Shown: one piece after another, positions 673 to 64,000 of the stretch
Layout: each line of letters opens with the position of its first letter
Numbering within the stretch: the first letter of the stretch is position 1
NCBI GenBank assembly: GCA_004376375.1
Contig: SOJX01000087.1
Location: 81,238-145,237, forward strand
Origin: Planctomycetota bacterium
Lineage (GTDB): Bacteria > Planctomycetota > E44-bin39
Direction: 5' to 3'
DNA: 64,000 bases
Translations under genes and position numbers: made by a program
Notes under the pieces: model-generated
Told to the model about the DNA's origin: nothing
Databases searched by the model: none
The model's input: the letters and a program-made list of their open reading frames with translations, nothing else

Positions 673-686
673 GCCGAGGTTAACAC

Positions 687-2187: not shown

Positions 2188-2203
2188 TTTAGAAAGGTCT
2201 GAA

Positions 2204-3277
2204 ATGGAAACAATCTTTGGAGATGAATGTGGGTATACTGGCCAAGACCTTCTTCAGCCTGAACAACCTGTATTTGTTGAAGCAACCATAAAAATCTCTG
2301 AAGAGCAGAGCAAGGGATATCACGAAGAATTCTTTAGCAAGATTCAAGCAAAGGAATTAAAACACAAGAAGCTCTCAAAGAGGCCAAAACAGCAAGAGAT
2401 GGTTTTACGGTTTCTTGATTCCATCATTAAGGATTCCGTCCAGATCGATGTATTGATTATGCATAAACCATATGCTCTCCTTGGGAAGTTCGTTGATCTT
2501 GTTGTCGAACCAATAATGAAAATAACTGGCCATGACTTACTTTCAGAGGGAGAAAACCTCGCACTGACTAATTTGTTATGGATGGTTCTGCCCGTATTTA
2601 CCAGTGAGAATTTCTTCAATGAATTCCTGGTTAATTTTCAGAAATTGGTTCGAGAGCGTACTCCTGAGGCCTATGAAGATTTCTTCCGTCCTCTGTTATC
2701 AAGAAAATATCCACGACAACTGGATATTTTGATAACACCAGTTATGCTCTCAAATAGCCTGCTCAATACATCCATACTCTCTGATCTGGAGGATGGCCTA
2801 AAGGTAATGATAACCTGTTATTTCACACTTCTTGCGCGCTGGAACAATAAAGTTGATAAAGATATTACACTTGTGCTTGACCGCTCTTCTGAAGTTGCAC
2901 AGGATTATAAAACTTGGGAAGCATTAATGAATCCCTACAATAAACCCGTCTCTATAGGAACTGGGAATAGAAATACAACTTTCCCGATGAAAGTAAAAGA
3001 AACTTCTTTGGAGGACTCATGTGACTGGTGCGGATTACAGTTGGCTGACATCATTGCTGGTGCCACGACGAGATATGCTCACTGGATATTAAATGGACAA
3101 AATGCCGAAGATGAATATGCGGTTAAACTCGGCGAATTAATCATTAATAACATTATTGAACCAGCATGGAAGCTGTGGCCATCTGACAAAATGACCCCAG
3201 AAGAAATGGGTACTGAAAGGTATAATGGCAATGAGGCGATTGAGCAAATCGGGAAGATAATTGATGACAATGATTAG
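2204..3277 (+). CDS. DUF3800-family protein
   Basis: N-terminal 'IFGDECGYTG' (DUF3800 'DESG'-type start) and C-terminal 'LQLADIIAGA' motif. Confidence 0.6.
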   Translation: METIFGDECGYTGQDLLQPEQPVFVEATIKISEEQSKGYHEEFFSKIQAKELKHKKLSKRPKQQEMVLRFLDSIIKDSVQIDVLIMHKPYALLGKFVDLVVEPIMKITGHDLLSEGENLALTNLLWMVLPVFTSENFFNEFLVNFQKLVRERTPEAYEDFFRPLLSRKYPRQLDILITPVMLSNSLLNTSILSDLEDGLKVMITCYFTLLARWNNKVDKDITLVLDRSSEVAQDYKTWEALMNPYNKPVSIGTGNRNTTFPMKVKETSLEDSCDWCGLQLADIIAGATTRYAHWILNGQNAEDEYAVKLGELIINNIIEPAWKLWPSDKMTPEEMGTERYNGNEAIEQIGKIIDDND

Positions 3278-3408
3278 TGCAAACATAACATAGCCATGTT
3301 TTCAGTAGATTCCAGAGCGTTTTTCTGAACTAGCTGCGTGAAATACTTTGGGGGAGACATAAGTAAACATTATCGGTGCAATGGACGTCCTACCTAATGC
3401 ATTACTCT

Positions 3409-4284
3409 TCAATCAATTTTTCTCCCATCTGTTTCTAGAACGATTTTTTCAAAGCACGCCAGAACGTCAGGGAACTTATCTTTGAGGTATTTCTTGACCT
3501 TCTTGCTGGTAATCAATTTCCCAACGTAGCTGCATGTCTTTAATAGGTCAGTGGAATATCGGTGATACGTAGTAGTGTAGAAATCGTGGCTTTTTTGGGC
3601 TTCTTCCAACTTTGCAACCAGCTCTTTCCCTTTCGTGGGGTCCTGCGTCCAGGGTTTCCTTTTCTTTTTTTCGCCATTGCGCAGACTTTCAGGGGTTTTG
3701 ATTACCAGGGCCCGGGCAAACGACCGGCTGTAATCATTATTTTTCTGCATCTCTCTCAGTATTTGAAGTTGCCGCTTCGGCTTCACATAGGTGAACTCCG
3801 CTGCGCACTTCCGGCTCATAAAATTATCATCCAGTACTTTAATAACTTTCAGATGCAGTTGCTTAATCACAGTGGCCGCGAGCCGATATTTTATAGACCG
3901 CAAGCCAAAGGTCCCAGAAATGGCCGGTTCGGCAACGGTTTTGAGGGCTTTTTGCAGCATTCTATTCTCTTGTACAGCCGAAATCCTACTGACCTTTTTG
4001 TTCCAAGTGTATGTTTCCTTATTTTTCTTATTGCTGAAGACCCGACACGGAACTTTCCTGACGCCGAGTTTTTCAAAAGCCTTAAATCTGAGATAGCCGT
4101 CCAGGATGCTGTACTTCCCGTTTTTTTTATAAACGCAGACAGGTTCGACCAGGCCGACAGCCTTAATGGTGGCCACTATCCTGGCAAATCCCGCGTGAGA
4201 TTTCAGGTTAATGTCTCTTACGCGCAGGGGGACGAGATTCTCTATCGCAATATCTTTTCCCTGTACATTTACAACGTTTGCCAT
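3409..4284 (-). CDS. ParB/Sulfiredoxin-fold (ParB N-terminal nuclease-like) domain protein 1
   Basis: N-terminal 'PLRVRDINL...IKAVGLVEPVCVY...YSILDGYLRFKAFEKLG' matches the ParB-N pattern (G-x-R-R-x-A-like box). Lys-rich C-terminal half. Confidence 0.55.
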   Translation of the reverse strand: MANVVNVQGKDIAIENLVPLRVRDINLKSHAGFARIVATIKAVGLVEPVCVYKKNGKYSILDGYLRFKAFEKLGVRKVPCRVFSNKKNKETYTWNKKVSRISAVQENRMLQKALKTVAEPAISGTFGLRSIKYRLAATVIKQLHLKVIKVLDDNFMSRKCAAEFTYVKPKRQLQILREMQKNNDYSRSFARALVIKTPESLRNGEKKKRKPWTQDPTKGKELVAKLEEAQKSHDFYTTTYHRYSTDLLKTCSYVGKLITSKKVKKYLKDKFPDVLACFEKIVLETDGRKID

Positions 4285-4307
4285 GGGATTCCCTCCTTAG
4301 AAGCAGT

Positions 4308-4706
4308 CTACTTCGGCGACATCCTTCCCCGATTCCGAGTTTTGGGGCCCGCCGCTGGCTTTCGTTTCGCGTCGGCAGACTTGGATGACTTCTTTTTATT
4401 CCTCGGAAGAGTAATAAGTGATTGAAGAAACGAAAGGAACTCCATCTCTTCCCACATGACAAAGCTGGGCGCTTTTACTACTCCCAGATTCCGACATGCG
4501 TTTTCCCATGAAGGGCCGTCGATGATGAGATACCTTCCGTTACCACCGCTGATCATCATTTTCTCGATAAGCCCGATCCTTTTGATTGTCGACATCAGCT
4601 TGTTCAGACGTTCAAGGCCGGGAGAGCTTCCGTTCTTGGGCTTCTGAGACATCAGGAGATTATGCAACGCCAGAACTCTTTCCATGACGGGGTTCTTTTT
4701 AGACAT
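4308..4706 (-). CDS. ParB/Srx-fold domain protein 2 (small, basic C-terminus)
   Basis: 'IKRIGLIEKMMISGGNGRYLIIDGPSWENACRNLG' is ParB-N-like. Its stop overlaps the upstream gene (4699..4706). Confidence 0.45.
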   Translation of the reverse strand: MSKKNPVMERVLALHNLLMSQKPKNGSSPGLERLNKLMSTIKRIGLIEKMMISGGNGRYLIIDGPSWENACRNLGVVKAPSFVMWEEMEFLSFLQSLITLPRNKKKSSKSADAKRKPAAGPKTRNRGRMSPK

Positions 4707-5592
4707 GATACTCTCCTTTCAGTCGGGGGCGCTGGTCGAGCCCTTCGACTTTTAACAAGGCAACCAGTTTTTTGTCCTTCCAAATAGTATTGATTCCATC
4801 CAGGAGAGTGAGCAGGCGATTCACCTTTATGTTTGCCTCATGGTTGAATGACCTTTTCTCCTTGGTAATCTTGGAAATATCTGCCTTCAAGTTTTTGACC
4901 GAATAATTTTTCAGACGCGAGCGCCCTCTTCTATTTCCTGTCTGCTTTCCGCGTTTGATTCTGGTTTCTATAATCTTCCGGACCGAACTGGTATTATTGC
5001 TGCTGATAATGCCTGTATCGAAAGCGTCCATAAGAACATTCTGGATGGTGGAATTATCCGACCTTGCCACCAACATGGCAAAGGTTATGGGGAACAACCC
5101 CTGTTCCACTCCTTTTATCAACCTCGCTTCGCCCTGTTCCACCAGACGGATATAGTCCCGGATGTACGATTCGCATTTGCCGACGATTTTGCTAATCTCA
5201 GCGTATGACCAGCCTTCATCGTGTACCCGTTTGATTTCGTATGCAAACCACATCGTCCCGGGCGGTACGCGAGCGATGTTTTCAACCAGGGAATAAAGCA
5301 GCGCCTCCTTTTTACTACAGCTTCTGATCTCCGCAGGAATATGTGAGTACCCGAGCTCTTTGAAAGCGAGATAACGCCCCTGGCCACAGATCAATTCGTA
5401 ATGACCTGTTCTCTTGAAATTTCGCGTACTTACAAGGATGGGCTTTAGCAAGCCTACTTCCTTGATGCTCCGGATGATTTCCTGAAATTTAGTCTTGCCT
5501 CTGTTCCGAGGGTTCAACACCTTGATCTTGTCAACCGGTATATCCTCGTATTTGCGTTCTGTCATTGGCATTATCTTAATCGTTTTCATAGT
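4699..5592 (-). CDS. ParB-like nuclease domain protein 3
   Basis: 'IKEVGLLKPILVS...YELICGQGRYLAFKELG...LVENIAR' (ParB GERRxRA-like box and ENxxR box). Start chosen at 'MKTIKIMPMTERKYEDIPVDKIKV'. Follows the recombinase directly on the minus strand. Confidence 0.55.
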   Translation of the reverse strand, partial: TMKTIKIMPMTERKYEDIPVDKIKVLNPRNRGKTKFQEIIRSIKEVGLLKPILVSTRNFKRTGHYELICGQGRYLAFKELGYSHIPAEIRSCSKKEALLYSLVENIARVPPGTMWFAYEIKRVHDEGWSYAEISKIVGKCESYIRDYIRLVEQGEARLIKGVEQGLFPITFAMLVARSDNSTIQNVLMDAFDTGIISSNNTSSVRKIIETRIKRGKQTGNRRGRSRLKNYSVKNLKADISKITKEKRSFNHEANIKVNRLLTLLDGINTIWKDKKLVALLKVEGLDQRPRLKGEYHV

Positions 5593-5600
5593 ATGACCTC

Positions 5601-7091
5601 CTAGTCCAAAAGGGCCGCAATCATATCCAAGTTGCGGCACCCGTAGAGTTCGAGTCTGCTGTCACTCGAACTGAAGAGCTTGATGTTGCGGCTGTCTACG
5701 AGCATCCTGGGAAAAGTCAGATAACCTAGAATATCGTGTTTCCCGCTATTGGACAGGGGAACCCCAAGGGTGATATCCACTTCTTTTCTGGAATCCGGCA
5801 GGAACGACCAATAGGTGGTATATCCGTGAAAGACAGGCACCGACGGTTGAATGAGAAGGCTGAAACTGTCATTCAGGACAACGTAATCGTCAATCTCTTC
5901 AACTTGCCTGGCCAACGTTCTGAGCTGATCGACAACTGATTGCCTGGCCCGATCCCGAACATCTTTGTAGATATTCTGAAATGCCATGTCCAGTGACAGA
6001 AAATGCTTTGTGTAAGTTGCTGGAGACACCATCTTCTTGTCTGCAGCAACCTGACGTGGGCCGGCTTTGCCATATCGTTTATATAGTTTCGCAAGCCTCG
6101 CGAGCATGTCCTCGGCTGAATACCTGCGTTCGTGCTCTGCATTCATGGCTTCGATTCTTTCTTGAGCCTGAGTGAACAAAGCCTTATTGATGATCCCCTT
6201 GAATGCATTTTCTTGGCGAACCCACTCTTCTCTGGGGTTCTGCTTGGTGCCAGATTGCAGCTTTTGCCGTGTCTTATTGTAAACCATTGTTCCGATGTAG
6301 AATTCATTGGTCAAAATCGCCTGAATCGCACTGCTCGTCCACTTTTTACCACCGGGAGAAAGAATACTTCCGTCATTAAGAGAAGCCGCAATTTCTTTCG
6401 GGGCACAGCGTTTTTTAACAAAGGAGTTAAATATTTTCCTGACGACAGATGTTTCTTTTCTATCACCCGGAGCCAAAGTAACCCTTTGGTTTTGGATGCT
6501 TTTTCTTTGTCCCGGTTTCAGAATCTGAACGGGGTTGCGTTTTTCATCCAGGAGAAGCCTATGAAGACCATACGGTGGCGGAGCACCCGCCCGGAACCCC
6601 TGCTCGGCAATCTTCACACATCCCTTGAATACTTTGACGCTGAGTTCGCGGCTGTAATTGCCGGCCATAAATCGTTCAATATTCAGGTGCAGGAAACCTA
6701 AGAGGTCATCTTCTTCACGGAAGCCCATTGTCGTATAGACAACTTGTTTTCCGTAATTCAGACACATCGCCGCATAATACGCCGCAATGTCCGGATTCTG
6801 GAATCGCCCCCATCGGGTAGCATCAAGCACCAGGACATAATCGAAGTCCTCCTTGCCCTCAATCACATACTCGATCATTTCAAGGAAGGCATCTCTGCCC
6901 TTGGTTGACAGACCAGATTTTCCCGGCTCTTCAAATTCTTTGATAATCTCAATACGATTATCATCAGCGAACTTTCCTATCCGCTCCCGTTGAATAGGAA
7001 TGGAGTTTTCCTGCCGGTCTTGTGCAGAGTGGCGATAATAAGTTATCGCTTTTTTCCCACCCGGGGCTTTCTTTTGTTTTTTCCACCACAT
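5601..7091 (-). CDS. large serine recombinase (resolvase/invertase catalytic domain plus recombinase and zinc-ribbon region)
   Basis: N-terminal 'AITYYRHSAQDRQENSIPIQRERI...DYVLVLDATRWGR', resolvase-like with a Ser nucleophile context. About 500 aa with a long recombinase-domain tail. Start placed at 'MWWKKQKK'. Confidence 0.75.
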   Translation of the reverse strand: MWWKKQKKAPGGKKAITYYRHSAQDRQENSIPIQRERIGKFADDNRIEIIKEFEEPGKSGLSTKGRDAFLEMIEYVIEGKEDFDYVLVLDATRWGRFQNPDIAAYYAAMCLNYGKQVVYTTMGFREEDDLLGFLHLNIERFMAGNYSRELSVKVFKGCVKIAEQGFRAGAPPPYGLHRLLLDEKRNPVQILKPGQRKSIQNQRVTLAPGDRKETSVVRKIFNSFVKKRCAPKEIAASLNDGSILSPGGKKWTSSAIQAILTNEFYIGTMVYNKTRQKLQSGTKQNPREEWVRQENAFKGIINKALFTQAQERIEAMNAEHERRYSAEDMLARLAKLYKRYGKAGPRQVAADKKMVSPATYTKHFLSLDMAFQNIYKDVRDRARQSVVDQLRTLARQVEEIDDYVVLNDSFSLLIQPSVPVFHGYTTYWSFLPDSRKEVDITLGVPLSNSGKHDILGYLTFPRMLVDSRNIKLFSSSDSRLELYGCRNLDMIAALLD

Positions 7092-7345
7092 ATTATTACT
7101 TTCTGCGGAACTCGCGGATCGCGTTACTGAGAAGCACGGACGCATTGCCGAGCTCTTCCTTTGCAGCACGGCCAAGGAAAAAAGCCGATCCCCCCATTAA
7201 GAAAGGGGAATTATAGGCACTTTTAATGAATTTTTTTCAAAATATTTTTCAGCCTATATCTAGTGGCTTACGCTATCCAAGGCTACAACATGTAGAATTT
7301 TGCCGCTGGTGTGGGTTATGAATATTAATTAATGAGTCACGATTT

Positions 7346-7852
7346 TCAACTGGCCGAGCTAATCTTATGAGAAATCCTACTGGCAAACTCCTGTAAGAGA
7401 TTAGTTGCCTTTCTACGTGTAATTGCCTGATCGAGCAACGTGCCAACAACCCGAATCAGTTCTGCTTCATCGGAAGGCTCCTGCGATTGCTGGGATAGAA
7501 TGAGCAATTTTTTCCTGATTTTCTTTAACGCGCCGCCTACTTTTTTTCCTCGCCTTTTTTTGCCGATTAAATGTTGATTGACCGCTGGTTGGGAAATGTT
7601 CAATTTCTCAGCGATTTCGGACTGGGTGTGGCCGCGGAAACGAAGGATGAGGGCCTGTTGCTGCTTGTATGTCAAATCATTGAGAATGATCCTGTTTAAT
7701 AACGGTATAAACAGCGATAAGATTTCATTTTTTTTCAGCCGGTCTTTTCTTTCGTGATTATAACTGTACCACCGACCGGAGGTCTCGGGTATATTTTGCC
7801 AATGTCTTACATCAAGGTGAGCATTTCCAAAAAAATTCTCCCCGTTTTTCAT
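7346..7852 (-). CDS. small sigma-70 region-4-like / HTH DNA-binding regulator
   Basis: 'LTYKQQQALILRFRGHTQSEIAEKLNISQPAVNQHL' HTH followed by a basic tail. Confidence 0.45.
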   Translation of the reverse strand: MKNGENFFGNAHLDVRHWQNIPETSGRWYSYNHERKDRLKKNEILSLFIPLLNRIILNDLTYKQQQALILRFRGHTQSEIAEKLNISQPAVNQHLIGKKRRGKKVGGALKKIRKKLLILSQQSQEPSDEAELIRVVGTLLDQAITRRKATNLLQEFASRISHKISSAS

Positions 7853-8616
7853 TTTTGTCCCCCGGATCGAATGAAATTTGAAGTGATATTCCGGGGGGCG
7901 AGTTCTGAAAAGAGAAGAGCGAGATTGCGCTGTTCTGTTAAAGACGTAGCGTGGGCAAGGAGGCCTTGTTATCTACTTCCTGGGCAACGAGATTACCACA
8001 TTTTACGGGGTCGTTTCCCATACTTGTTTTAGGCCGAGTAGGAGGCCCGCAGCGTTCTTCAAGCGTTCGGTGCATGGGTCCAATGATGACATATGCTCAT
8101 ATAGACAAAAAATATCTTTGAGATCTTTCGTGCGTATCCTCGATAAGGTTTCGCGGATGTCATTAATGCGCGCGCAGCAGCTTTCGGATTCACACTGATG
8201 TGTGGCTCCTTGCTCTTTCTCCACCATTAAGTTCATTGGTTTCCGCTGTGTCGTTATTGCATTCATTATTTCCCTCCTTCCTGGAGTTAAAAAAATAAGG
8301 GAGCGCCAACACCAAGGTCACTCCCGGCCGACGGGCCTACCAGGGCCCATGCACCGACAGCAAACTCTTGGGCGGCGCTCCCGCAAAATGCGGAAGCACC
8401 ATCGCCAAGCTTTGCCATCCTGGTGCAAATATGGAATCTGGTAGTTTGTCGGCCAGGACACAATGCCTTTGATGAACTTAACGCTTAATTATGCTTATAT
8501 CATTATCCTCCATTATCTGGACTCTAAAAGCGTTTATTACCATAAACAATAGCTCTTATTGGAGTACTGTCAAGCCTCTTTCCTTTATAAAGGGCATAAC
8601 CATTAATGCCGGTTGA

Positions 8617-23140: not shown

Positions 23141-23386
23141 ACTCGCGGCTATAATCCGTTGCAGCCTCTAGGATGCTTAACATGCGCGCCGTTTACTATA
23201 TACATCATCACAGGAACATATCGAAAATATGGTTAATATTATACCTCGGATACTTCCTTTTTTCCATCAGGTTCTTGTTAATTTTGGAATATCGGATTAT
23301 TGCATCCCCAAAGCCTCGATGAAAGCCGGCTAACAAATTTCGGTGACCCCTCGGCACACTTCTTACTATGCTGGAAAGGCCGGGAC

Positions 23387-23590
23387 TCAAGCACCTTTCG
23401 CAAGCCGGTTTCTGAGATATTCTGCTGCTTCTGCGTATCCGGCCTGCCTCAGTTCTTCACACAACGAAGGCCAGTTCTGTGCCAGCCTCCTTGATATTGT
23501 GTGAAACTCGACCCGGCACCTCTCACAACAGAACTTGTGATCCGGTCGTATAGGTGTGAAATCAGTCCCGCAACGCTTGCATTGCTTCAT
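23387..23590 (-). CDS. small zinc-ribbon protein, hypothetical
   Basis: 'CKRCGTDF...CCERCRVEF' double CxxC. Confidence 0.3.
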   Translation of the reverse strand: MKQCKRCGTDFTPIRPDHKFCCERCRVEFHTISRRLAQNWPSLCEELRQAGYAEAAEYLRNRLAKGA

Positions 23591-23914
23591 TGAAAAACTC
23601 CTTTCTCGCTCCATACACGCATCCGAATAAGCGGTCTAATACTTTGCTATCAAACGCCTCCAGAAATGCGCGTACGCAGCGCAACCCCCCACCCACGTCC
23701 AAGGAAAATCGATTCTGAGGGTAGGCTGTCGTTTTACATACACCTCGAAATGGGGTGGGAGAACTCACGAAATGATCCATAATGGTGCGATAAATATTTA
23801 TGCACTTGACATTACCTCTATGAATTCAGTAAGATATGATGGAATTTCGGCCGAAAAGACGGAAATGTACTCACCGGAAAAAAGTTCTAACTCTGTCCAC
23901 TCGCCCCGACCAAA

Positions 23915-23945
23915 ATAAAAGGCCGCATGCGGCCTTTTTATTTTG
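23915..23945. terminator. rho-independent-type hairpin (GGCCGCATGCGGCC) flanked by A/T runs on both sides
   Basis: 'aaaataaaaGGCCGCATGCGGCCtttttatttt', a bidirectional terminator shape. Confidence 0.4.
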
Positions 23946-23947
23946 GT

Positions 23948-24030
23948 AGAGCAGGAGAACAGTAGAGAGGAGAAAGTAGAGCAAAGAAAAAGACATTAAA
24001 AGGAGAACGGTATCCGAATCGGCAATAAAC
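23948..24030 (+). repeat. approximately 82-bp direct repeat, copy 1 (upstream of the GH130/GT4 cluster)
   Basis: Near-identical to 31009..31090 ('agagcaggagaacagtagagaggagaaagtagagcaaagaaaaagacattaaaaggagaacggtatccgaatcggcaataa'). Confidence 0.65.
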
Positions 24031-24162
24031 CACATCCGGATTCATATTTTTTCCACGATCTTTCTGCCGCTTTCTGAAACCTTTTCAATACGGAAACTCC
24101 TTTGAATAGAAAGGCATTCATTGAATTATATCTTTGACCCGGTTCCCGAGTAGTGATATCTT

Positions 24163-25152
24163 GTGTCAAGTGTATACAGTATGCGAAAGGACGTCCAGGG
24201 ACAAGTGTCTGCAATGAAAAACAGCAATCGAGAGCTTTTTACGCGGCATCCGGGCAACCCGATTATTACGGCAAAGGACATTCCCTATCCCGCCAACACG
24301 ATCTTCAACGCGGCCGCCGCGAGACTTGAAGGCGAGACTCTGCTTCTTCTGCGTATTGAGGACAGGCGGGGCTTTTCCCACCTCACTGCCGCGAGGAGCG
24401 CAGGCGGCGTTACCGACTGGAACATCGACAAGAAGCCGACTCTTCTCGGCGACGGGAACAAATACCCCGAGGAGGCCTGGGGTATCGAGGATGCCCGCAT
24501 CACCTTCATCGAAGACCTCGGCAAATGGGCCGTCGCCTACACGGCTTACTCGGACCTCGCACCGCTGGTGTCGCTCGCGTTGACAGAGGACTTCAAAAAG
24601 TTCGAGCGCATGGGCCCCGTGCTCCCGCCGGAGAACAAAGACGCCGCGCTCTTTGGAGCGAAGTTTGATGGGCGCTACACCATGCTGCACCGGCCCGTTC
24701 CGGCGGGGCCCGGTGTGGGCGCGCACATCTGGATTTCGTTCTCGCCGGACCTCAGGCACTGGGGCGACCATCGTGTCCTGCTCCGGGCGCGCCAGGGCGG
24801 CTGGTGGGACGCGAACAAGATCGGCCTCTCGACGCCACCCTTGAAGACTGACGAGGGCTGGCTCCTGCTTTATCATGGTGTGCGCGAAACCGCGAGCGGC
24901 TGCATCTACCGGCTGGGCCTTGCTCTTCTCGATCTTGATGACCCGACCAGGGTCGTCTGCCGCTCGGACGAATGGGTCTTCGGGCCCGAGACGTTGTATG
25001 AGAGGGTCGGAGACGTGGGTAACGTCGTCTTCCCATGCGGGTGGACGCTGGAAGGCGACCAACTGCGCATCTACTACGGCGGAGCTGACAGCTGCCTGGC
25101 GCTTGCGACAGGGAGCCTCGCCGAGATCCTCGATTGGCTGAAAAATAAGTGA
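24163..25152 (+). CDS. GH130-family glycosidase / glycoside phosphorylase-like (DUF377 beta-propeller)
   Basis: 'HPGNPIITAKDIPYPANTIFNAAA...' and typical GH130 blocks. The true start may be 'MKNSN' at about 24214. Confidence 0.65.
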   Translation: MSSVYSMRKDVQGQVSAMKNSNRELFTRHPGNPIITAKDIPYPANTIFNAAAARLEGETLLLLRIEDRRGFSHLTAARSAGGVTDWNIDKKPTLLGDGNKYPEEAWGIEDARITFIEDLGKWAVAYTAYSDLAPLVSLALTEDFKKFERMGPVLPPENKDAALFGAKFDGRYTMLHRPVPAGPGVGAHIWISFSPDLRHWGDHRVLLRARQGGWWDANKIGLSTPPLKTDEGWLLLYHGVRETASGCIYRLGLALLDLDDPTRVVCRSDEWVFGPETLYERVGDVGNVVFPCGWTLEGDQLRIYYGGADSCLALATGSLAEILDWLKNK

Positions 25153-25209
25153 ATCAGTAAATCAGTAATAACTGAATAACTGGATAACTGAATAACTGGA
25201 TAACTGAAT

Positions 25210-26238
25210 ATGCGAGTTGCTATGCTTTCACCCGTTGCATGGAGGACGCCGCCGCGCCACTACGGCCCGTGGGAGCGCTTCGTTTCGCTCTTAACGGAGG
25301 CCCTCGTGGAAAAGGGCGTGGACGTGACCTTGTTTGCAACCGCCGACTCGAAAACCCGTGCCAGGCTCCACGCCGTCTGCGAGCGGGGCTACGAGGAAGA
25401 CAAGTCCATCGACCCCAAGGTGTGGGAGTGCCTTCACATCTCGGAGGTTTTCGAGCGCGCAGGCGACTTCGACCTGATTCACAACAGCTTCGACTTCCTG
25501 CCGCTCACCTACTCCGGCCTCGTAAGCATTCCGGTACTGACGACGATCCACGGTTTCTCGTCGCCGAAGATTCTGCCCGTGTACAGGAAGTACAACGGCA
25601 AGGTCTTTTATGTCTCAATCAGCGACGCTGACCGTTCGCATGAGCTGGATTACATTGCCACCATCCACCACGGCATCGACCTTGAAAACTTCACTTTTCG
25701 GCCGGAGGGCGGTGACTACCTGCTTTTCTTCGGACGTATCCACAACGACAAAGGCGCCCGTGAGGCGATAGAAATCGCAAAGCGCGCCGGCCGAAAGCTC
25801 GTCATTGCCGGTGTGATTCAGGACCAGGAGTATTTCGAGCAATGGATAAAACCACACATCGACGGCGAGCGGATTTCCTACGTCGGCAGCGCAGGCCCCG
25901 AGCTGCGCGACGAGCTGCTGGGCGATGCGTATGCGTTGCTGCATCCAATCAATTTCGATGAGCCTTTCGGGTTCTCGGTCGTGGAATCGATGGCCTGCGG
26001 CACGCCGGTAATTGCCATGAACCGCGGCAGCATGCCGGAGCTGATTGAAAACGGCGTAAATGGCCTCCTCGTTTCCAGCGTGGAAGAGGCCGTGGACGCC
26101 GTAGAGAAAGTGGAAAAGATCGACCGCGCCCACTGCCGCAAGGTGGTGGAGGAGCGCTTTACCGCCGAAAACATGGCAGACCAATATATCAAGGTCTACG
26201 AACGTGTAATCAAGGAAGCCGGGGCTTCCCATGAATGA
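25210..26238 (+). CDS. glycosyltransferase family 4 (GT4)
   Basis: 'LLFFGRIHNDKG...EPFGFSVVESMACGTPVIA' GT4 E-x7-E region. Confidence 0.7.
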   Translation: MRVAMLSPVAWRTPPRHYGPWERFVSLLTEALVEKGVDVTLFATADSKTRARLHAVCERGYEEDKSIDPKVWECLHISEVFERAGDFDLIHNSFDFLPLTYSGLVSIPVLTTIHGFSSPKILPVYRKYNGKVFYVSISDADRSHELDYIATIHHGIDLENFTFRPEGGDYLLFFGRIHNDKGAREAIEIAKRAGRKLVIAGVIQDQEYFEQWIKPHIDGERISYVGSAGPELRDELLGDAYALLHPINFDEPFGFSVVESMACGTPVIAMNRGSMPELIENGVNGLLVSSVEEAVDAVEKVEKIDRAHCRKVVEERFTAENMADQYIKVYERVIKEAGASHE

Positions 26239-27166
26239 GCCGGTCGTCAAACGCTACGAGAAAAACCCGATACTCACGAAGCGCGACGTTCCCTACCCGG
26301 TGGAGACCGTGCACAACGCCGGCGTGGTCAAGCACGAGGGGCGGTACATAATGCTCTTTCGCTCGCACTTGCGAAACGGCCGCTCGATTATCGGCATGGC
26401 GGAAAGCGACGACGGCTTTTCCTTCAAGGTCCGCCCTGAGCCGTTCCTCGTGCCCTTCGGCGAGGGCGACTTCGCCCTGTACGAGGAGTACGGGGTGGAA
26501 GACGTCCGCATCTGCCCGCTCGAGGGCGAGTATCTACTCACCTTCAGCGCGTACTCCCGGCACGGCGTGCGGGTGGCGCTTGCAAAAACAAAAGACTTCG
26601 AGTCCGTCGAGCGAATCGCGCTCATCACACAGGCGGACCTGAGAAACGTCGCTATCTTCCCCGGGAAATTTGATGGCCGCTACGCCCGGCTCGACAGACC
26701 GCATTCGGAGATATCCCCGTGGTCGATCTGGATTACCTACTCGCCGGACCTCGTCCACTGGGGCGATTCGAAAGTGGTAATGAAGCCCGTGCAATACCAC
26801 TGGGACGAGATGAAAATCGGCCCCGGCGCAACCCCGATAAAAACCGACCGCGGATGGCTGCACATCTACCACGGAGTCTTTTCCACCATGAGCGGGTCGG
26901 TCTATCGCCTCGGAGTGGCGCTTCACGACCTTGAAGACCCGTCAAAGGTGCTCGGCGTCTCGGATGAATGGATACTTCAGCCCGAGGACCCGTGGGAGAT
27001 CACGGGTTACGTGCCCAACGTGGTTTTCTGCTGCGGCGCGGTGCCGGAGAACGACGGGACGCTGAAAATATACTGGGGAGGAGCGGACACGGTCATGTGC
27101 GTTGGCACGGCGCAAATCGACGACCTTATCAAGATGTGTCTTGACCGGCCGCGGCAACCCATGTAA
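26231..27166 (+). CDS. GH130-family glycosidase / glycoside phosphorylase-like, paralog
   Basis: 'YEKNPILTKRDVPYPVETVHNAGVV'. Paralogous to 24163..25152. 8-nt overlap with the upstream GT4. Confidence 0.65.
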   Translation: MNEPVVKRYEKNPILTKRDVPYPVETVHNAGVVKHEGRYIMLFRSHLRNGRSIIGMAESDDGFSFKVRPEPFLVPFGEGDFALYEEYGVEDVRICPLEGEYLLTFSAYSRHGVRVALAKTKDFESVERIALITQADLRNVAIFPGKFDGRYARLDRPHSEISPWSIWITYSPDLVHWGDSKVVMKPVQYHWDEMKIGPGATPIKTDRGWLHIYHGVFSTMSGSVYRLGVALHDLEDPSKVLGVSDEWILQPEDPWEITGYVPNVVFCCGAVPENDGTLKIYWGGADTVMCVGTAQIDDLIKMCLDRPRQPM

Positions 27167-27358
27167 TATAAAGAAGTTTCGAGTACCGAGTGCCGAGTTT
27201 CGAGTAAAGAAAATAAAAAGAAGTTTCGAGGTTCGAGTAAAGAAATGATTAGGGGATTTTTCACTCGATACTCGGTACTTCTTATTGAGATTGCTTCGCT
27301 TTGCTCGCAATGACAAAAATAGCGTTGCCGTGCTGGTACACCTGGGAGAACTGATGAC

Positions 27359-28576
27359 ATGCGCCCAATTGTGATGATTTCAAGCTGGCCGCCGCGCCTT
27401 TGCGGCATCGCAACGTTCGCCGAGGAGGCACTGGAGTTTATCTGCAAGGCTGATCCCGCGCGCCCGGCCTATGTCATTTCTCACACCGACGGCGAGGGCG
27501 AGTTCGTCAAGCCTGTCATCGACATGAGCCGCGAGGACTGGTACGTCCCGGTCGTCGAAACAGTTAAAGAACTCGACCCCGAGGTCATCCACATCGAGCA
27601 CGAGTACGGCCTTTACAACTACATAAACGACAAGGGCGAAGGCGACGGGAACCGCGGGTTCCTCAAGATGCTCGACCTGCTCAGCGGCTACCCGACAGTT
27701 GTCGAGCCGCATACCATCCACGGCAGGATGAGGGACCAGGAAGAGATTTTCGTCAAGGAACTCGCCGAGAAGTGCTCCGTCCTCCTTTTCAAGTGCCACT
27801 ACCAGAAGTGGCGTCTGCGCTGGAGTTTCGAGGGCCGGGACTGGAAGGTTCCGGAAAACATCATGATTATCCCTCACGGCGCGCGGCCGGACTTCCGCTG
27901 GGCAATTAGCGAAGTCGACAATCTCAAGCGCGAACTCGGGCTCGGTGAGTACGCCGGGAAGCACATCATCGGCCTCGTCGGATGGATACAGTCGAACAAG
28001 CGCTGGGATATCCTCACGAGCATGTGGGAGGACATCTACCACGAGATACGGGAGGAGACGGGGGAGGAATGGTTCCTGTTCGCCGCCGGCTCGATGCGCG
28101 ACCCGAACCACAAGTCAGACTATGAGAAGTACGTAAGCGAGATCAAGCTCCTTGAGTCCGAGGGCATGGCCAGGTACTTCGAGTTCGTGCCCCGCGGAGA
28201 GCTTTACTACAAAGCAATGGCCGTCTGCGACTTCATCGTCCTGCCGAGCCTGGACGAGACCCAGTCCGGGACGCTTGCGAGGATTATCGCCCTCAATAAG
28301 CCGTACATCTCCACTGCTCCGATGGAGGGCCTTACCGCTCAAACCGTGGAGAGCGAAGGCGGGCTCCTCTTCACCCACAAAGCGGGGCTGAGGGAAAAGG
28401 TCATCAGGCTCGCAACTGACGAAGGGTTGCGCATGCGTTTGGGCGAAAACCTGAAAAAGTATCTTGATGAGACGGTCAGTTGGGAAGTGGTTGCAAGGCA
28501 ATACCTCGAGGCGTACCAACTGGCGAGCCGCGAGGTCCGTGAAGGCAAGCCGGTCTACATCCGCCCGGAGTTCTAA
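27359..28576 (+). CDS. glycosyltransferase (GT4-like, divergent)
   Basis: 'ISSWPPRLCGIATFAEE' N-terminus shared with the next gene ('LPRLCGIATFTTDL'). GT-B-like C-terminal half. Confidence 0.55.
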   Translation: MRPIVMISSWPPRLCGIATFAEEALEFICKADPARPAYVISHTDGEGEFVKPVIDMSREDWYVPVVETVKELDPEVIHIEHEYGLYNYINDKGEGDGNRGFLKMLDLLSGYPTVVEPHTIHGRMRDQEEIFVKELAEKCSVLLFKCHYQKWRLRWSFEGRDWKVPENIMIIPHGARPDFRWAISEVDNLKRELGLGEYAGKHIIGLVGWIQSNKRWDILTSMWEDIYHEIREETGEEWFLFAAGSMRDPNHKSDYEKYVSEIKLLESEGMARYFEFVPRGELYYKAMAVCDFIVLPSLDETQSGTLARIIALNKPYISTAPMEGLTAQTVESEGGLLFTHKAGLREKVIRLATDEGLRMRLGENLKKYLDETVSWEVVARQYLEAYQLASREVREGKPVYIRPEF

Positions 28577-28696
28577 CGCGTCGAGGGTCGAGCGTCAAGC
28601 GTCGAGCGTCAAAAATAAGTGATAAGAGATAAGAAAATTATTTATATCCTTATCACCTATTAACCTATCACTTATCACGATTTTTTTGGACGATTT

Positions 28697-30979
28697 ATGC
28701 CGGATAAAAAGAAAAAGTATGAGCTCAATTCCGTTGCTGTGATAGGCAACTACCTGCCGCGGCTGTGCGGCATCGCCACTTTTACAACCGACCTCTGCAA
28801 CGCGCTGAGCGAGAAGCTCGGGGACCAGGGTGATGTCCTTGCACTCGCAATGGATGATATCCCCGGCGGATATTCCTACCCCGAGCGCGTCAAGTTCGAG
28901 CTCCGCGCGAACGTCCAATCCGACTACCTCCGCGCCGCGGACTTTATCAACGTCTACCAGTTTGATGTCGTAATCCTTCAGCACGAGTTCGGCATCTTCG
29001 GCGGTAAGCAGGGCGCCCACATTCTCCACCTCCTGAAACACCTCAGGATGCCGATTCTGACGACGCTTCACACGGTGCTTACGGAGCCGTCGGACGAACA
29101 GCGCGTGATTATTCACGAGTTGGCAAAATATTCCGAACGGTTCGTCGTCATGAGCAACAAGGCCCACGACATCCTGCTTGATACGTTTGCGGTACCCGAG
29201 TCGCAGATCCAGCTCATCCCGCACGGCATCCCGGACGTCGCCTTCGTCGACCCGAGCTTCCACAAGGACCAGTTCGGCGTGGAGGACCGCAAGGTCATCC
29301 TTTCCTTCGGCCTCCTCAGCCCCGGCAAGGGCATCGAACACATGATCGACGCGATGCCTGAGATTCTGGCAAAGCACCCAGATGCGGTCTACATTATACT
29401 CGGCGCCACCCACCCTCACGTTAAGATGGCGACCGGCGACGCTTACCGCCACGGTCTCCTGCAGAGAGTAAGCAAGCTTGGCCTCGAGGACCACGTGCTT
29501 TTCCACAACCACTTTGTCAGCCTCGAGGTGCTCGTCCAGTACATCGGTGCAGCGGATATCTACGTTACACCATATATCTCACCGGCGCAGGTAACATCCG
29601 GAACGCTGGCCTACGCTATCGGCTCGGGGAAGGCGGTTGTATCAACACCATACTGGTATGCCGAAGAACTTCTGGCTGAAGAGCGCGGTCGGTTGGTGCC
29701 CTTTGGCGATCCAGGCGCCATGGCCCGGGAGATAAGCGAACTGCTCGAAAACGACCTTGAACGCAACGCCATGCGCAAGCGGGCTTACCAGTCCACCCGG
29801 CCGATGGTGTGGAAGGAAGTGGCGCGACAGTACCTCGAACTTGCGGTCAGCGCCCTCGAGCGCTGCGTCAGTTCGCCGAAACCCGCGCACGGCGAGGCCA
29901 GGACCCCGAAGATTCTCGACGAGCTGCCGGAAGTTAACCTTGCACACCTCCGATCCCTCACCGACGACACCGGCATCCTCCAGCACGCCAACTACTCCAC
30001 GCCCAACCGCTACCACGGTTACTGTGTAGACGACAACGCCCGGGCCCTTATCGCAACCAGTATGTACTACTCCATGCGCAAGGACGAGAGCGTCATTCCA
30101 CTCATCCACAAGTACCTCGCGTTCCTCTTCCATGCATTTAACCTCAAGACCGAGAGGTTCCGCAACTTCATGTCATACGAGCGGACCTGGCTCGAAGAAA
30201 TTGGAAGCGAGGACTCGCATGCCCGCGCCATCTGGAGCCTTGGTGTCGGGGTGAAGCACGCGCCGAATGACGCCATCCGCGATATGGCGACCCGGCTTTT
30301 CCTCGAGGGGCTCCGCAAGGTCGAGCCCTTCTCATCTCCGCGGGCATGGGCCTTCATTCTGGTCGGCTTACACGCATACCTCGACGTATACGGCGGCGAT
30401 GCCACCGTCCGTCGGCTGCGCAGCGTCCTGGCCGAAAAGCTGCATAAGGCCTTCATCAGGAACGCGGATAATGACTGGCCCTGGTGCGAGGAGACCGTGA
30501 CTTACGCCAATGCGAAGCTGCCCCATGCACTTATCCTCTCCGGCCAGTGGATTCCGGACGCAAAGATGCATGAGACCGGCCTCAAGCTCCTCGAATGGCT
30601 TCTTGAACAACAGACCGTGCCGGACGGCCATCTCTCGGTCATTGGAAACTCGGGCTGGTTTACCCGCGGCGGTATCCGATCCAATTTCGACCAGCAGCCC
30701 ATTGATATCATGGCGCTCGTGGAGGCGTGCACTGAGGCCTTCCGCTCCACCGGCGATAGGAAGTGGCTCGGGGAGTCGCGGCGGGGCCTGGCATGGTTCC
30801 TCGGCAGAAACGATCTCCATGCCGTGATTTATGACTTCAAGACCGGAGGCTGCCGCGACGGCCTGCAACCCCACGGCCCAAATGCCAACCAGGGTGCGGA
30901 GTCTACTCTTGCCTGGCTTATCTCCCTTCTGACCATGTTTGAAATTCTGGGGCAGGAAGTGCTGGTGGTCAAGGGATAA
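28697..30979 (+). CDS. GT4 glycosyltransferase fused to a C-terminal (alpha/alpha)6-barrel glycoside-hydrolase-like domain
   Basis: N-terminal GT4 ('FGLLSPGKGIE...VSTPYWYAEE'). The C-terminal 350 aa ('YCVDDNARALIA...') resemble GH63/debranching-enzyme-like barrels. Confidence 0.55.
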   Translation: MPDKKKKYELNSVAVIGNYLPRLCGIATFTTDLCNALSEKLGDQGDVLALAMDDIPGGYSYPERVKFELRANVQSDYLRAADFINVYQFDVVILQHEFGIFGGKQGAHILHLLKHLRMPILTTLHTVLTEPSDEQRVIIHELAKYSERFVVMSNKAHDILLDTFAVPESQIQLIPHGIPDVAFVDPSFHKDQFGVEDRKVILSFGLLSPGKGIEHMIDAMPEILAKHPDAVYIILGATHPHVKMATGDAYRHGLLQRVSKLGLEDHVLFHNHFVSLEVLVQYIGAADIYVTPYISPAQVTSGTLAYAIGSGKAVVSTPYWYAEELLAEERGRLVPFGDPGAMAREISELLENDLERNAMRKRAYQSTRPMVWKEVARQYLELAVSALERCVSSPKPAHGEARTPKILDELPEVNLAHLRSLTDDTGILQHANYSTPNRYHGYCVDDNARALIATSMYYSMRKDESVIPLIHKYLAFLFHAFNLKTERFRNFMSYERTWLEEIGSEDSHARAIWSLGVGVKHAPNDAIRDMATRLFLEGLRKVEPFSSPRAWAFILVGLHAYLDVYGGDATVRRLRSVLAEKLHKAFIRNADNDWPWCEETVTYANAKLPHALILSGQWIPDAKMHETGLKLLEWLLEQQTVPDGHLSVIGNSGWFTRGGIRSNFDQQPIDIMALVEACTEAFRSTGDRKWLGESRRGLAWFLGRNDLHAVIYDFKTGGCRDGLQPHGPNANQGAESTLAWLISLLTMFEILGQEVLVVKG

Positions 30980-31008
30980 AATCCCCGCCTGCGGTATTTT
31001 ATTTGGGC

Positions 31009-31090
31009 AGAGCAGGAGAACAGTAGAGAGGAGAAAGTAGAGCAAAGAAAAAGACATTAAAAGGAGAACGGTATCCGAATCGGCAATAAC
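31009..31090 (+). repeat. approximately 82-bp direct repeat, copy 2, extended into a long imperfect palindrome (to about 31140) downstream of the GT cluster
   Basis: Same sequence as 23948..24030. Followed by 'ccgttctcctgcggtctcctttctactctctactttc', which folds back on the repeat. Confidence 0.65.
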
Positions 31091-31226
31091 CCGTTCTCCT
31101 GCGGTCTCCTTTCTACTCTCTACTTTCAGAACTTGCGGCGCCGGACGGCGCCCCAAGTTTTTTTAATTCCTGCCCCTCCCCGACGCGACTGATTCAGGAA
31201 ACGAGTCAGGCCCCGGGGCCTGGGGA

Positions 31227-40201: not shown

Positions 40202-40286
40202 CGGCCGCGCTTGCGCGGCGTTGTAGGGGCAAGGCACGCGCCTGTTCTTTGCCCCCTACATATCAACGCGCCGCAAGCGGCGCCGC
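40201..40286. repeat. approximately 86-bp near-perfect palindrome (REP-like, GCCCCTACA family) exactly filling the gap between convergent genes
   Basis: Left arm 'gcggccgcgcttgcgcggcgttgtaggggcaa'. Right arm 'ttgccccctacatatcaacgcgccgcaagcggcgccgc'. Confidence 0.55.
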
Positions 40287-45063: not shown

Positions 45064-45730
45064 GTTACAGAATTCCTGGGTTTGTAACCCTGAAAATTTT
45101 CGGCATGGTTTTTGTCGGGAGTTAAAAGTTTAAAGTGTAATCTGAAGTTACATCAATGCTTTGGGAGTCAAAAGTTTAAAGTTATAAGTTTAAAGTTAAA
45201 TCATTTGCTCTGGACTTTTAACTTTCGACTTTTGACTTTAAACTCTATTTCCTGATTTTTCCCAGGTTGCAGAATGCGAATAGAATGGTTATTGGTTTTT
45301 GGTCATTGGTTTTTGGTTAAAGGTCTCAAGTCTCAGGACTAATTATTGGCCGAATGACTGAGTGACTTTTCCCGACCGAAAGGTTTTATGAATCGAAAGC
45401 TCCATTCTGGTATTCTGGTAAGACAATACCACAATGGTGTTCTTTGAAGCATTTGAAATGGGAAGGGGAAAGAAGGAAATGCAAGAATGCCGGAACGATG
45501 TGCTGTTAAGTTTGTAATGCGGAAATTTTTTGGCACGGGATTTGAGGGCGTAGTTAAAAGTTTAAAGTTGTAAGTTCTAAGTTAAATCCAATGCTCCGGA
45601 CTTTTAACTTAGGACTTTTGACTTTAAACTTCTTACCCGATTTTCGATTGTCGATTTTACTTATTACCTTGTCAACCTGTTACCGTGTTCCTTCTCCCGA
45701 TTCCCGGCCGAATGACGGAGTGATTTTTTC
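45064..45730. repeat. tandemly duplicated noncoding module (unit A 45064..45375, unit B 45503..45730), each with a long AT-rich imperfect palindrome built from TAAAGTT/AACTTT heptamers (45166..45245 and 45552..45631)
   Basis: Shared blocks 'gtttgtaa..gaaaatttt(c/t)ggca(t/c)gg', 'agttaaaagtttaaagt...gacttttaactt..gacttttgactttaaact', 'ggccgaatgac(t/g)gagtga(c/t)tttt'. Confidence 0.55.
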
Positions 45731-50021: not shown

Positions 50022-50561
50022 CCTCGATAAATAGCAATAAATGGGGGGAAACCGCCTATTTATTTTTGTTCCGCCCTTTCAGGGCGGGTTGTTTATTGGG
50101 GGCTTTTCCCAGGGCGGCGGTTTGCTTCGCAAACCTTGCCCTGGGCTACTATATTACGGCCCTTCGGGGCCTTCACAAGGAATAGCATATTAAGAAGCGG
50201 GCATAGCATGCTATGCCCCTACAATTCAACGCGCCGCAAGCGGCGCGGCTTCACAAAAATCCTGGATTCCCGCCTGCGCGGGAATGACGGAAGAAATCAA
50301 TCGGCAGAAGTCCCGAGTACCGAGTCGTGAGTCTCGCGGCGCGGGGGGCGCGGCTACACGAAGAACAAGACCGCGCCACTGGGTGGCGCTGAATAAGGGA
50401 TAAGGTAATAAGTAGATAAGGGAATATGGGCATTGCATGCAATGCCCCTACAATTTAACGCGCCGCAGGCGGCGCGGCGGTTAACCGCACCCGGAGAATT
50501 CACCACGCCTTCCGGCGTGGTGCTTCCGGGCATAGATTAATGTTGTTATCGTTTTTATGAA
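50022..50561. repeat. hairpin-dense intergenic region with two REP-like copies (50199..50249, 50428..50478) plus several other GC hairpins and a GAGTNNN heptamer run (50300..50345)
   Basis: 'ccgccctttcagggcgg', 'cccagggc..gccctggg', 'ggcccttcggggcc', 'gggcatagcatgctatgcccctacaattcaacgcgccgcaagcggcgcggc', 'gggcattgcatgcaatgcccctacaatttaacgcgccgcaggcggcgcggcg', 'gcgccactgggtggcgc', 'cacgccttccggcgtg'. Confidence 0.55.
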
Positions 50562-52409: not shown

Positions 52410-52560
52410 AGAAAGTATGAAGTATGAAGGCTGAAGTATGAAAAGAAGTACCAAGTACCAAGTACCGAGTACCAAGTATCAAGTACCAAGTATCAAATAC
52501 CAAGTATCAAGTACCGTAAAAAGAGACATCTGGTACTTGGTTCCTGGTACTTGGTACTTT
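52410..52560. repeat. tandem heptamer array ((G/C)AAGTA(T/C), about 17 units) followed by its inverted complement (TGGTACT units), forming a long hairpin in the nadB-hflX spacer
   Basis: 'gaagtatgaaggctgaagtatgaaaagaagtaccaagtaccaagtaccgagtaccaagtatcaagtaccaagtatcaaataccaagtatcaagtaccg ... tggtacttggttcctggtacttggtact'. Confidence 0.7.
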
Positions 52561-52566
52561 CTTGAT

Positions 52567-54240: not shown

Positions 54241-54245
54241 TCTCG

Positions 54246-55730: not shown

Positions 55731-55770
55731 TCTCTTTCCCTCCCTTTATCCTGATTCCTCCGTCATCCCG

Positions 55771-57246: not shown

Positions 57247-57718
57247 CTTCCCCCCCAGAAGTCCGTATCTCTCTTTATGTGACATATTTTTAGTTTACTG
57301 GAATCCGCAAAAGGATTCAAGCAAAATACACGCTTTACAACCTTAGATCGTGCCGAGAATAACAAAATGCGCTGCAAACAATCTGCAGATAATGCGGGTC
57401 CGTCATGAATTTTCCGGAAAGTCCCTGTCGAGTTTAAACGGAATTGTAATTAGTGCTTCAATGGAGAAAATTAGGCCGTTAGAGTTGCCAAACGCCAATC
57501 TGTATTGTATAATATAGTGGATCTTTTTACGGGCGTGAAATCGTCGAGTTGCATATATCCGTCGAAGCCACATGATTGTTCTAACTCGTTATGATGGACG
57601 CGATTCCGATTATGAGGTTTTATCTGGCAGATAAGACTGGTCTGTCATGAGTGCGCATGCAATATGCGTAAACCAGTTGGGTGATATATTTGCTTCGAAA
57701 CTAAGTCTCCAACATGGG

Positions 57719-63650: not shown

Positions 63651-64000
63651 GCGCCGTTTGCTGCATTAGAAGCTGTAGAGGCGGGTCTCAGACCCGCCCA
63701 TATCGCGCGAAGCTCATTATAACCGACCAACCGAATAACCGGGCAACCGAACAACCATTCAACCGCTTGCACAATCCGCGTTTGGGTGTAGAATATAGAA
63801 GAAGTCCTGAGTCCCGAGTCCTGAGTCCTGAGTCAGAAGAAAAGAAATAATAATGCGCGGCGGAGCCGCACAAAACGGAACCGCGAAGCGGTGAAATATA
63901 GTAGCCCAGGGCGTGAGCCCTGGGTATGAGTACCCAATAATTTCAGAGAGCCCTGAAAGGGCGAAACAATCTGGAGAACAGGATGATTTTTGTACCGCCC

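Follow-up and report, generated by a model that had tools for sequence, protein, structure and literature searches.

Direct repeats around a GH130/GT4 operon in a Planctomycetota bacterium: possible recombination scars at a heptamer-repeat hairpin

A 64,000-nt stretch of a Planctomycetota genome (GTDB lineage Bacteria; Planctomycetota; E44-bin39; GenBank assembly GCA_004376375.1, contig SOJX01000087.1, positions 81,238 to 145,237 of the forward strand; here called the window) carries a five-gene GH130/GT4 operon between two near-identical direct repeats. This poses the question whether the repeats mark the edges of an acquired cassette or belong to an element that serves the operon. The explanation we lean towards, with slightly less than even confidence, is that the two copies are recombination scars resembling attL and attR, left when a circularised cassette recombined, without an integrase, into a pre-existing terminator and hairpin.

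The repeat pair and its secondary structure

The anatomy of the pair can be read directly from the sequence. The initial annotation had reported near-identical copies of about 82 bp. They are present and extend slightly further, over 96 nt of which 93 are identical (97%). The copies lie 7,061 nt apart and differ at three positions: 23944 (T/G), 23947 (T/C) and 24029 (A/C). The elements at the two edges of the operon are:

23917-23938, unstranded: bidirectional intrinsic terminator (AAAAGGCCGCATGCGGCCTTTT; -14.2 kcal/mol, z -3.1)
23936-24031, plus strand: repeat copy 1, a T-run tail, GGTAG and an 80-nt segment E (23950-24029); left arm and loop of a hairpin, without the right arm
24030-24039, plus strand: CCACATCCGG, of which 8 nt are identical to the relatives' flank 3' of GG(T/C)AG beyond the last operon gene
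24134-24162, plus strand: promoter-like site of the operon, TTGACC-17-TATCTT, within a block conserved in relatives
30997-31092, plus strand: repeat copy 2, a T-run tail, GGCAG and segment E (31011-31089); E forms the left arm and loop of hairpin H
31018-31127, plus strand: hairpin H, imperfect but complete (110 nt, -41.7 kcal/mol, z -4.6), with its right arm at 31091-31127
31129-31165, plus strand: strong intrinsic terminator, a GC hairpin (-20.9 kcal/mol) followed by U7

The two versions of segment E (23950-24028, equal to 31011-31089) agree at all 79 positions, and each sits directly 3' of GG(T/C)AG. The adjoining tail agrees at 12 of 14 positions. Left of this tail the flanks are only loosely alike (16 of 24 aligned columns), and we therefore make no claim of homology between the two terminators. 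E is internally tandem, with 14-15-nt (2x7) AGTAGAG/AGGAGAA units that Tandem Repeats Finder (TRF) detects in both copies (period 14-15, 2.4-3 copies). The same units build the left arm of H, between the last stop codon and the strong terminator.

No third copy was found in the window by a sensitive word-7 blastn of the window against itself, and none in same-genome extensions of 9.3 kb to the right and 8.6 kb to the left. The count is thus two copies in the ~82 kb inspected of a 346-kb contig. Proteins TET34914-TET34924 are encoded on this contig. The initial annotation had held that many copies scattered without regard to cluster boundaries would point to a common repeat; at the sequence level, no extra copy turned up in these ~82 kb. 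A 27-mer of the repeat had no exact match in genome and metagenome contig collections, and a 21-mer had none in viral contigs. These collections lack this strain, so the k-mer scans are silent on copy number. Both copies also occur in another assembly of this strain (L084, from JGI; 99.99% identical over 23.5 kb), so the pair is not an artefact of a single assembly. The source is a metagenome-assembled genome (MAG), in which a repeat-induced misjoin or duplication could arise. Against this stand the identical arrangement over those 23.5 kb, a 96-nt repeat below typical read size, and unique flanks on both sides of each copy that are colinear with coding genes. An assembly artefact is extremely improbable.

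The two copies differ in structure. Copy 1 starts inside the T-run of the bidirectional terminator and copy 2 starts 18 nt past the last stop codon; a complementary right arm is present at copy 2 only. The bidirectional terminator ahead of copy 1 and the palindrome of roughly 130 bp at copy 2, both noted in the initial annotation, are borne out. RNA folding of both copies, which it had proposed as a check, separates them: H is significant, whereas copy 1, which lacks the right arm, is with its flank no more stably folded than shuffled sequence (z -0.17). The suggestion of a reused terminator accordingly fails for copy 1, and copy 1 was also rejected as a weak terminator. Nor is the repeat itself an intrinsic terminator at copy 2, where H is followed by AGAAC instead of a U-run. 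A hairpin just after the stop codon (30976-31010) was rejected as a terminator as well, as its fold is not significant (z +0.8). The terminator at 31129-31165 is the only strong one of the operon and the real 3' end of its transcript. It lies beyond H, which places H within the 3' untranslated region (UTR). With Rfam 15, no family matched either copy at the gathering threshold; only chance-level microRNA-precursor matches were returned (E at least 0.05).

Two further ideas about copy 1 were discarded. Pairing with the right arm within the operon mRNA (5' UTR with 3' UTR) is rejected on grounds of position: copy 1 precedes the conserved promoter and follows a strong terminator. A minus-strand open reading frame (ORF) across the repeat (23871-24035) has no ribosome-binding site, crosses the terminator and meets a different reading context in copy 2.

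Could E nevertheless be a functional RNA or DNA element that is used twice, kept identical by selection as a protein-binding or small-RNA module that insulates both operon ends from antisense or read-through transcription? The perfect identity over 79 nt would suit such a role, as would the fact that each copy opens within the T-run of a tail that resembles a terminator. Copy 2, placed after the stop codon and ahead of the real terminator, is thus transcribed with the operon. E is 79% purine overall and 85% in its 60-nt left-arm part (23950-24009), which carries GGA motifs at 23954, 23969 and 24002; the plus strand thus offers three GGA/AGGAG motifs and the minus strand a C/U-rich, G-poor, rut-like tract. 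However, the repeat is absent from relatives with the same operon and is therefore not needed for it. Copy 1 lies ~105 nt upstream of the conserved -35 box, just past a strong terminator, its structure is not significant, and neither strand has a promoter-like site directed into it. There is no Rfam family match, and two identical copies offer no covariation. We regard this explanation as unlikely, and copy 1 is without evident function of its own.

Junctions with relatives and a possible recombination route

Three independent relatives of the operon were reached by exact-sequence look-ups: L081 (on a 69-kb contig), L082/L083 and L168. They share the gene order of the window at 88-93% nucleotide identity, and neither copy of the repeat is present in any of them. 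The flanking genes differ among the window and the relatives and are unrelated to one another. In the window the operon lies between a C25 peptidase gene and the minus-strand gene Band_7. In L081, RRM-domain and hypothetical genes adjoin it at one end and PMT_2 at the other; in L082, a 1.1-kb non-coding stretch takes one side and a beta-CASP RNase gene the opposite one.

The edges of homology are sharp. On the left, similarity between window and relatives begins 60-95 nt to the right of copy 1, at 24089 (L082) or 24126 (L081). On the right, it stops exactly at GG(T/C)AG, the base preceding E in copy 2. Past this point the relatives continue with CCACATCCAGG, so that their 3' flank reads GG(T/C)AG followed by CCACATCC. 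The junctions compare as follows:

L082: GCGGTATTTGGTAG joined to CCACATCCAGGCTAC
L168: ...GGCAG joined to CCACATCCAGGCTAC
Window, copy 2: ...TTTGGGCAG, then E, then CCCGTTCTCC, which is the right arm
Window, copy 1: ...TTTTGGTAG, then E, then CCACATCCGG

The 8-mer CCACATCC, which lies downstream of the operon in the relatives, thus has its place on the opposite side in the window, upstream of the operon and immediately 3' of copy 1. It occurs four times in the 64 kb on both strands, and we estimate at <1e-3 the chance that any of these falls no more than 2 nt from a repeat edge, of which there are four. Together with GG(T/C)AG before both copies, this position of CCACATCC suggests that the two ends of the operon were once joined. 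The left edge holds a second clue. The bidirectional terminator at 23917-23938 has no convergent minus-strand gene to its right for 7 kb. If the cassette is conceptually removed, the terminator would face Band_7, and the scar model thereby explains why it is orphaned. The presence of the right arm solely at copy 2 is also expected if H was the resident target.

We propose the following route, as the least complicated history that accounts for all four junctions. The cassette ends would once have been joined, as a circle or in a tandem form. The resident target would have consisted of the bidirectional terminator, hairpin H and a second terminator, downstream of minus-strand Band_7, and the circularised or tandem cassette would have recombined into this module without a dedicated integrase. 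Copy 2 would then be the native left arm of H, fused leftward to the 3' flank of the cassette (from the stop codon to TTTGGGCAG), with the right arm kept. Copy 1 would join the chromosomal left flank (from the terminator to TTTTGGTAG) to what is left of the 3' flank of the cassette (CCACATCCGG), after which comes the operon promoter. The crossover may have taken place inside a copy of E already on the cassette (route one). Alternatively, it may have taken place at the shared TATTT(T)GG(T/C)AG tail, in which case E would have been copied to the left junction later, by template switching or gene conversion (route two). Route two would explain why E is perfectly identical and the adjoining tail is not. 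The circular intermediate and the order of these events are what we infer from the junctions. Any function is likewise conjectural: H, placed in the 3' UTR before the only strong terminator, may act as a 3' stem-loop, and the 96-nt direct repeats would render the operon excisable by homologous recombination. The operon is thus predicted to be still excisable, and the population should be polymorphic for it.

Several points weigh against recombination of this kind. It presupposes either that the cassette already carried an E, which would be unexplained, or that a further round of copying took place. What is repeated is no more than one arm of a hairpin, of a type strewn across this genome. Pfam searches of the genes between 17.5 and 35 kb and of the rest of the window detected neither an integrase nor a RAYT or IS200-type gene within the cassette or close to it; the sole recombinase is a serine recombinase at 5601-7175, ~17 kb away. 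The junctions, which read GG(T/C)AG, E, CC, show no target-site duplication. Neither the window nor the relatives hold an intact tRNA (ARAGORN) or tmRNA, and Rfam was negative too. The junction evidence is an 8-10-nt match that was first spotted by eye; as sequence evidence it is good, not overwhelming. Inspection covers only ~82 kb of the 346-kb contig, and the two public DNA collections are without this strain.

The initial annotation had also proposed a look for relatives in which the cluster is absent and a single repeat copy remains. Among the Band_7 homologues L169-L173 (71-80% amino acid identity) there is no such empty site, in which C25 peptidase, H and Band_7 would follow one another without the operon, and the recombination reading is therefore not proven. 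These homologues are not syntenic with the window on either side, so weak conservation of gene order characterises the clade as a whole and is not peculiar to the cassette. The original idea of insertion scars or att-like boundaries thus stands in part: the contexts of the relatives, the edge of homology, CCACATCC and the orphaned terminator speak for it, and the lack of an integrase, a tRNA, a target duplication and an empty site speaks against it.

A comparison of divergence also speaks for the recombination reading, on one condition. L169 and L081 derive from one sample (3300041085). Band_7 is 83% identical at the nucleotide level to L169, and the operon is ~92% identical to L081. If L081 and L169 belong to one genome, these values are consistent with a more recent common origin of the cassette than of its surroundings.

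The same pattern of identity could also have arisen by local ectopic copying, the main alternative. Here, the operon would always have been at this site, and template switching or gene conversion would recently have pasted the left arm of H with its T-run tail upstream of it, where a similar short sequence lay (TTTTGGTAG...CC), with no insertion of a cassette. The steep decay of identity, from 79/79 in E through two mismatches in the 14-nt tail to 16/24 further left, would fit a short recent tract. Turnover of intergenic repeats is rampant in this lineage, all operon spacers differ from those of relatives by short-period insertions, and synteny is poor clade-wide. Yet local copying leaves the match of CCACATCC to the relatives' 3' flank as a coincidence, and explains neither the exact break of homology at the edge of copy 2 nor the orphaned bidirectional terminator. 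We consider local copying possible but doubtful.

The operon, its spacers and heptamer-repeat hairpins

The bracketed genes are co-directional, as first annotated:

24214-30979, plus strand: five-gene operon (GH130, GT4, GH130, GT4-like, GT4 with an additional C-terminal half)
24214-25152, plus strand: GH130; a longer ORF with a GTG start begins at 24163
25210-26238, plus strand: GT4
26231-27166, plus strand: second GH130 of the operon
27359-28576, plus strand: GT4-like
28697-30979, plus strand: fusion protein of 760 aa whose N-terminal half is GT4

The earlier label of 'hydrolase' for the last gene is unconfirmed: its C-terminal 390 aa (residues ~370-760) have no Pfam, NCBIfam or PDB sequence match and are conserved across phyla. 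The two GH130 proteins resemble beta-1,2-mannobiose phosphorylases, with scores below the family cut-offs. A retrieval seeded with the last operon gene gave only relatives of at most 63% identity. The five-gene GH130/GT4 cluster is conserved at 50-63% amino acid identity in many bacterial phyla and in Asgard (Promethearchaeota) MAGs (L001-L164). Elsewhere its order is usually fusion GT4, GT4-like, GH130, GT4, GH130, which differs from that of the window. Among 160 retrieved loci, 14 pairs of direct repeats bracket the cluster and 13 are one-sided, and none abuts both edges. Conservation of the cluster thus does not extend to its bracketing by repeats.

Repeats also fill the interior of the operon. 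In this strain all non-coding operon spacers carry short-period repeats, which relatives diverged by 8-12% lack. An octamer array, (ATAACTGR)x5 (ATAACTGA/ATAACTGG, 5.5 copies), occupies 25167-25210 (within 25143-25210) and ends 2 nt before the GT4 start codon. It includes the TAACTGA heptamer and is absent from L081 and L082. The spacer at 27170-27332 holds a strain-specific insertion of ~165 nt with a hairpin of AGTTTCG/AGTACCG heptads, and at 28578-28678 GCGTCGA, GATAAGA and TATCACC arrays form a second hairpin. The corresponding spacers of the relatives are short and non-repetitive at both sites.

H belongs to a numerous, lineage-specific group of hairpins made up of heptamer repeats. Period-7 arrays of at least three copies were counted in the window, L165 and L170 and compared with 160 other, unrelated control loci. 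Their density is 0.19/kb in the window and 0.43/kb in L170, against 0.03/kb in the controls, an enrichment of ~6-fold in this strain and up to 14-fold in L170. None was found in L081, L082, L169 or L171. Most of the arrays consist of two complementary arms, for example at 52419-52582 (AAGTACC x10) and at 45166-45244 and 45552-45630. L170, whose Band_7 shares 77% amino acid identity with that of the window, holds a stand-alone hairpin (-58 kcal/mol, z -4.0) with a left arm of (AGTAGAR)x7 and a right arm of the CTTTCTAC type. It lies between a Na/Ca exchanger gene and a gene for a PEP-utilising enzyme. As these genes are unrelated to the operon, elements of the H type exist independently of the cassette.

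Other repeats and structured elements are scattered through the window. Two GC-rich palindromes form a three-copy family (50199-50249, 50428-50478 and 40236-40286), which on the minus strand reads GTAG and then GGGCATAGCATGCTATGCCC, the classical layout of GTAG-tagged repetitive extragenic palindromes (REPs), with no RAYT gene in the window. An Acido-Lenti-1 RNA (RF01687) lies at 63879-63924 on the minus strand (59.5 bits against a gathering score of 37), with a 32-nt partner of 84% complementarity at 50138-50169 on the plus strand. Heptamer arrays adjoin both: AGTCCTG x4.6 at 63803-63834, and AGTCCCG/AGTACCG at 50306-50336. Two adjacent paralogous genes of ~500 aa at 54241-57285, 68-80% identical at the nucleotide level over ~1.5 kb and with TED_complement/SQHop_cyclase-like matches, are the source of repeat families D1, D2, D4, D6, D8 and D13.

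Comparison with known elements and implications

Like att-flanked genomic islands and Campbell-type integrants, the locus has near-identical direct repeats around a cassette that is found in other contexts in relatives, and one of its junctions holds sequence from the opposite end of the cassette in those relatives. A tRNA-like 3' fragment also lies 6 nt from the left terminator:

23896-23912, plus strand: tRNA-like 3' fragment (TCCACTCGCCCCGACCA), just left of the bidirectional terminator

Unlike such islands, the locus has no integrase or excisionase in or next to the cassette, no intact tRNA or tmRNA target and no observed empty site. The repeated block is a hairpin arm and not a tRNA or tmRNA 3' end, and recombination would need a RecA-type or microhomology-mediated route. 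The tRNA-like fragment (15-17 nt) is itself outside the repeat. Fifteen of its nucleotides match L082 636-650, the end of a T-arm/acceptor-like stretch (GGTGGTTCGAATCCACTCGCCCCGAC), and the only RNA-family signal at the fragment is weak (cyano_tmRNA T-arm, E 0.55). A tRNA or tmRNA at the left boundary was rejected, as ARAGORN and Rfam were negative. CCCCGAC was considered as an att core; with 12 occurrences in the window against ~8 expected, it is not convincing alone. In the relatives, tRNA-Pro-like 3' fragments (T-arm and CGCCCCGACCA) flank the operon in L082 (617-650 and 7805-7835), and another lies at ~895-927 in L168. Together with the fragment in the window, which belongs to the same group, these may be remnants of island integration sites.

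The surroundings on the left add two observations. A stretch of about 0.8 kb upstream of the C25 peptidase gene (23141-23916) is without a called gene. It holds a 75-aa zinc-ribbon ORF on the minus strand (23387-23614; weak DUF2116 match) and a promoter-like site at 23806-23835 (plus strand) that reads into the bidirectional terminator, and might encode a small RNA or a small protein. At its left end (1-8000; L167 1-9500) the window resembles a mobile or defence island, with a DNA methylase, a HerA/TraG-like ATPase of 1849 aa, an SRA-like protein, two ParB-like genes, DUF3800 and the large serine recombinase at 5601-7175.

REPs offer a second comparison. GTAG-tagged REPs are palindromes of 20-40 nt that also occur in Planctomycetes (Di Nocera et al. 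2013, PMC3733652). Like REPs and bacterial interspersed mosaic elements (BIMEs), H is intergenic and palindromic, is situated between convergent genes on the 3' side of a coding region, is probably present on the transcript as a 3' stem-loop and varies in presence between close relatives. Each copy has G(T/C)AG directly at its 5' edge and contains repeated GTAGAG units. In contrast to REPs, H measures 110 nt and has arms of tandem heptads, there are two copies in ~82 kb (one of them a half-element) instead of hundreds, and no RAYT gene (a Y1 HUH transposase) was found in the window or its 18-kb extensions.

The same evidence bears on whether the copies are two independent insertions, at GYAG targets, of a dispersed mobile element derived from a REP, a miniature inverted-repeat transposable element (MITE) or IS200, with the bracketing of the operon incidental. 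Both copies start immediately 3' of G(T/C)AG, the reported cleavage tag of REP-associated Y1 transposases (PMC3733652). The relatives have a clean joint of GG(T/C)AG to CC with no target-site duplication, the window contains the three GTAG-tagged palindromes, and L170 has a related AGTAGAG hairpin at another locus. Against such insertions, there are just two copies in ~82 kb, one of which is half a hairpin, the element far exceeds the size of a REP, the inspected sequence holds no Y1 transposase, and CCACATCC beside copy 1 is left unexplained. The absence of the 27-mer and 21-mer from collections that lack this strain points the same way. Insertion of a mobile element is, in our judgement, very unlikely.

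Enterobacterial repetitive intergenic consensus (ERIC), Correia and RUP-type elements are MITE-like hairpins in 3' UTRs. They resemble H in that a hairpin of ~110 nt is co-transcribed at the operon 3' end and is absent from the orthologous sites of relatives. H differs in having no terminal inverted repeats that match an insertion sequence, no target-site duplication and a very low copy number (two only), and copy 1 lacks the second arm.

Heptamer repeats are a further comparison. The short tandemly repeated repetitive (STRR) sequences of cyanobacteria are lineage-specific intergenic tandem repeats of heptamers. TAACTGA repeats are abundant direct repeats close to start codons in Beggiatoaceae, Cyanobacteria and Bacteroidetes (MacGregor 2015, PMC4679880). 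The arrays described here share with both the 7-nt period, the confinement to intergenic DNA and the strong lineage specificity: the TRF period in both repeat copies is twice seven, the enrichment over controls is ~6-fold, and (AGTAGAR)x7 recurs in L170. They differ in that two complementary arms usually form a long hairpin and in that the unit varies from spacer to spacer.

A broader scenario would be an uncharacterised process of this lineage that builds heptamer-repeat hairpins and copies them into spacers 3' of G(T/C)AG, the hairpins then acting, through their homology, as integrase-free landing pads by which metabolic cassettes, this GH130/GT4 operon among them, could move from one genomic context to another. 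We think this quite unlikely. Such pasting, precise 3' of G(T/C)AG and without target duplication, would be reminiscent of HUH/RAYT chemistry.

Taken together, the kind of element is known, both as GTAG-tagged REPs (PMC3733652) and as heptamer repeats (PMC4679880), and this particular sequence is not described. The current understanding of major systems is unchanged by these findings. They add a Planctomycetota example to the unexplained heptamer-repeat phenomenon of cyanobacteria and Beggiatoaceae. If the copies are indeed recombination scars, a carbohydrate-active operon would have moved within a poorly known, uncultured clade of Planctomycetota without a dedicated recombinase, and an element of terminator and hairpin would have been the substrate for its recombination.

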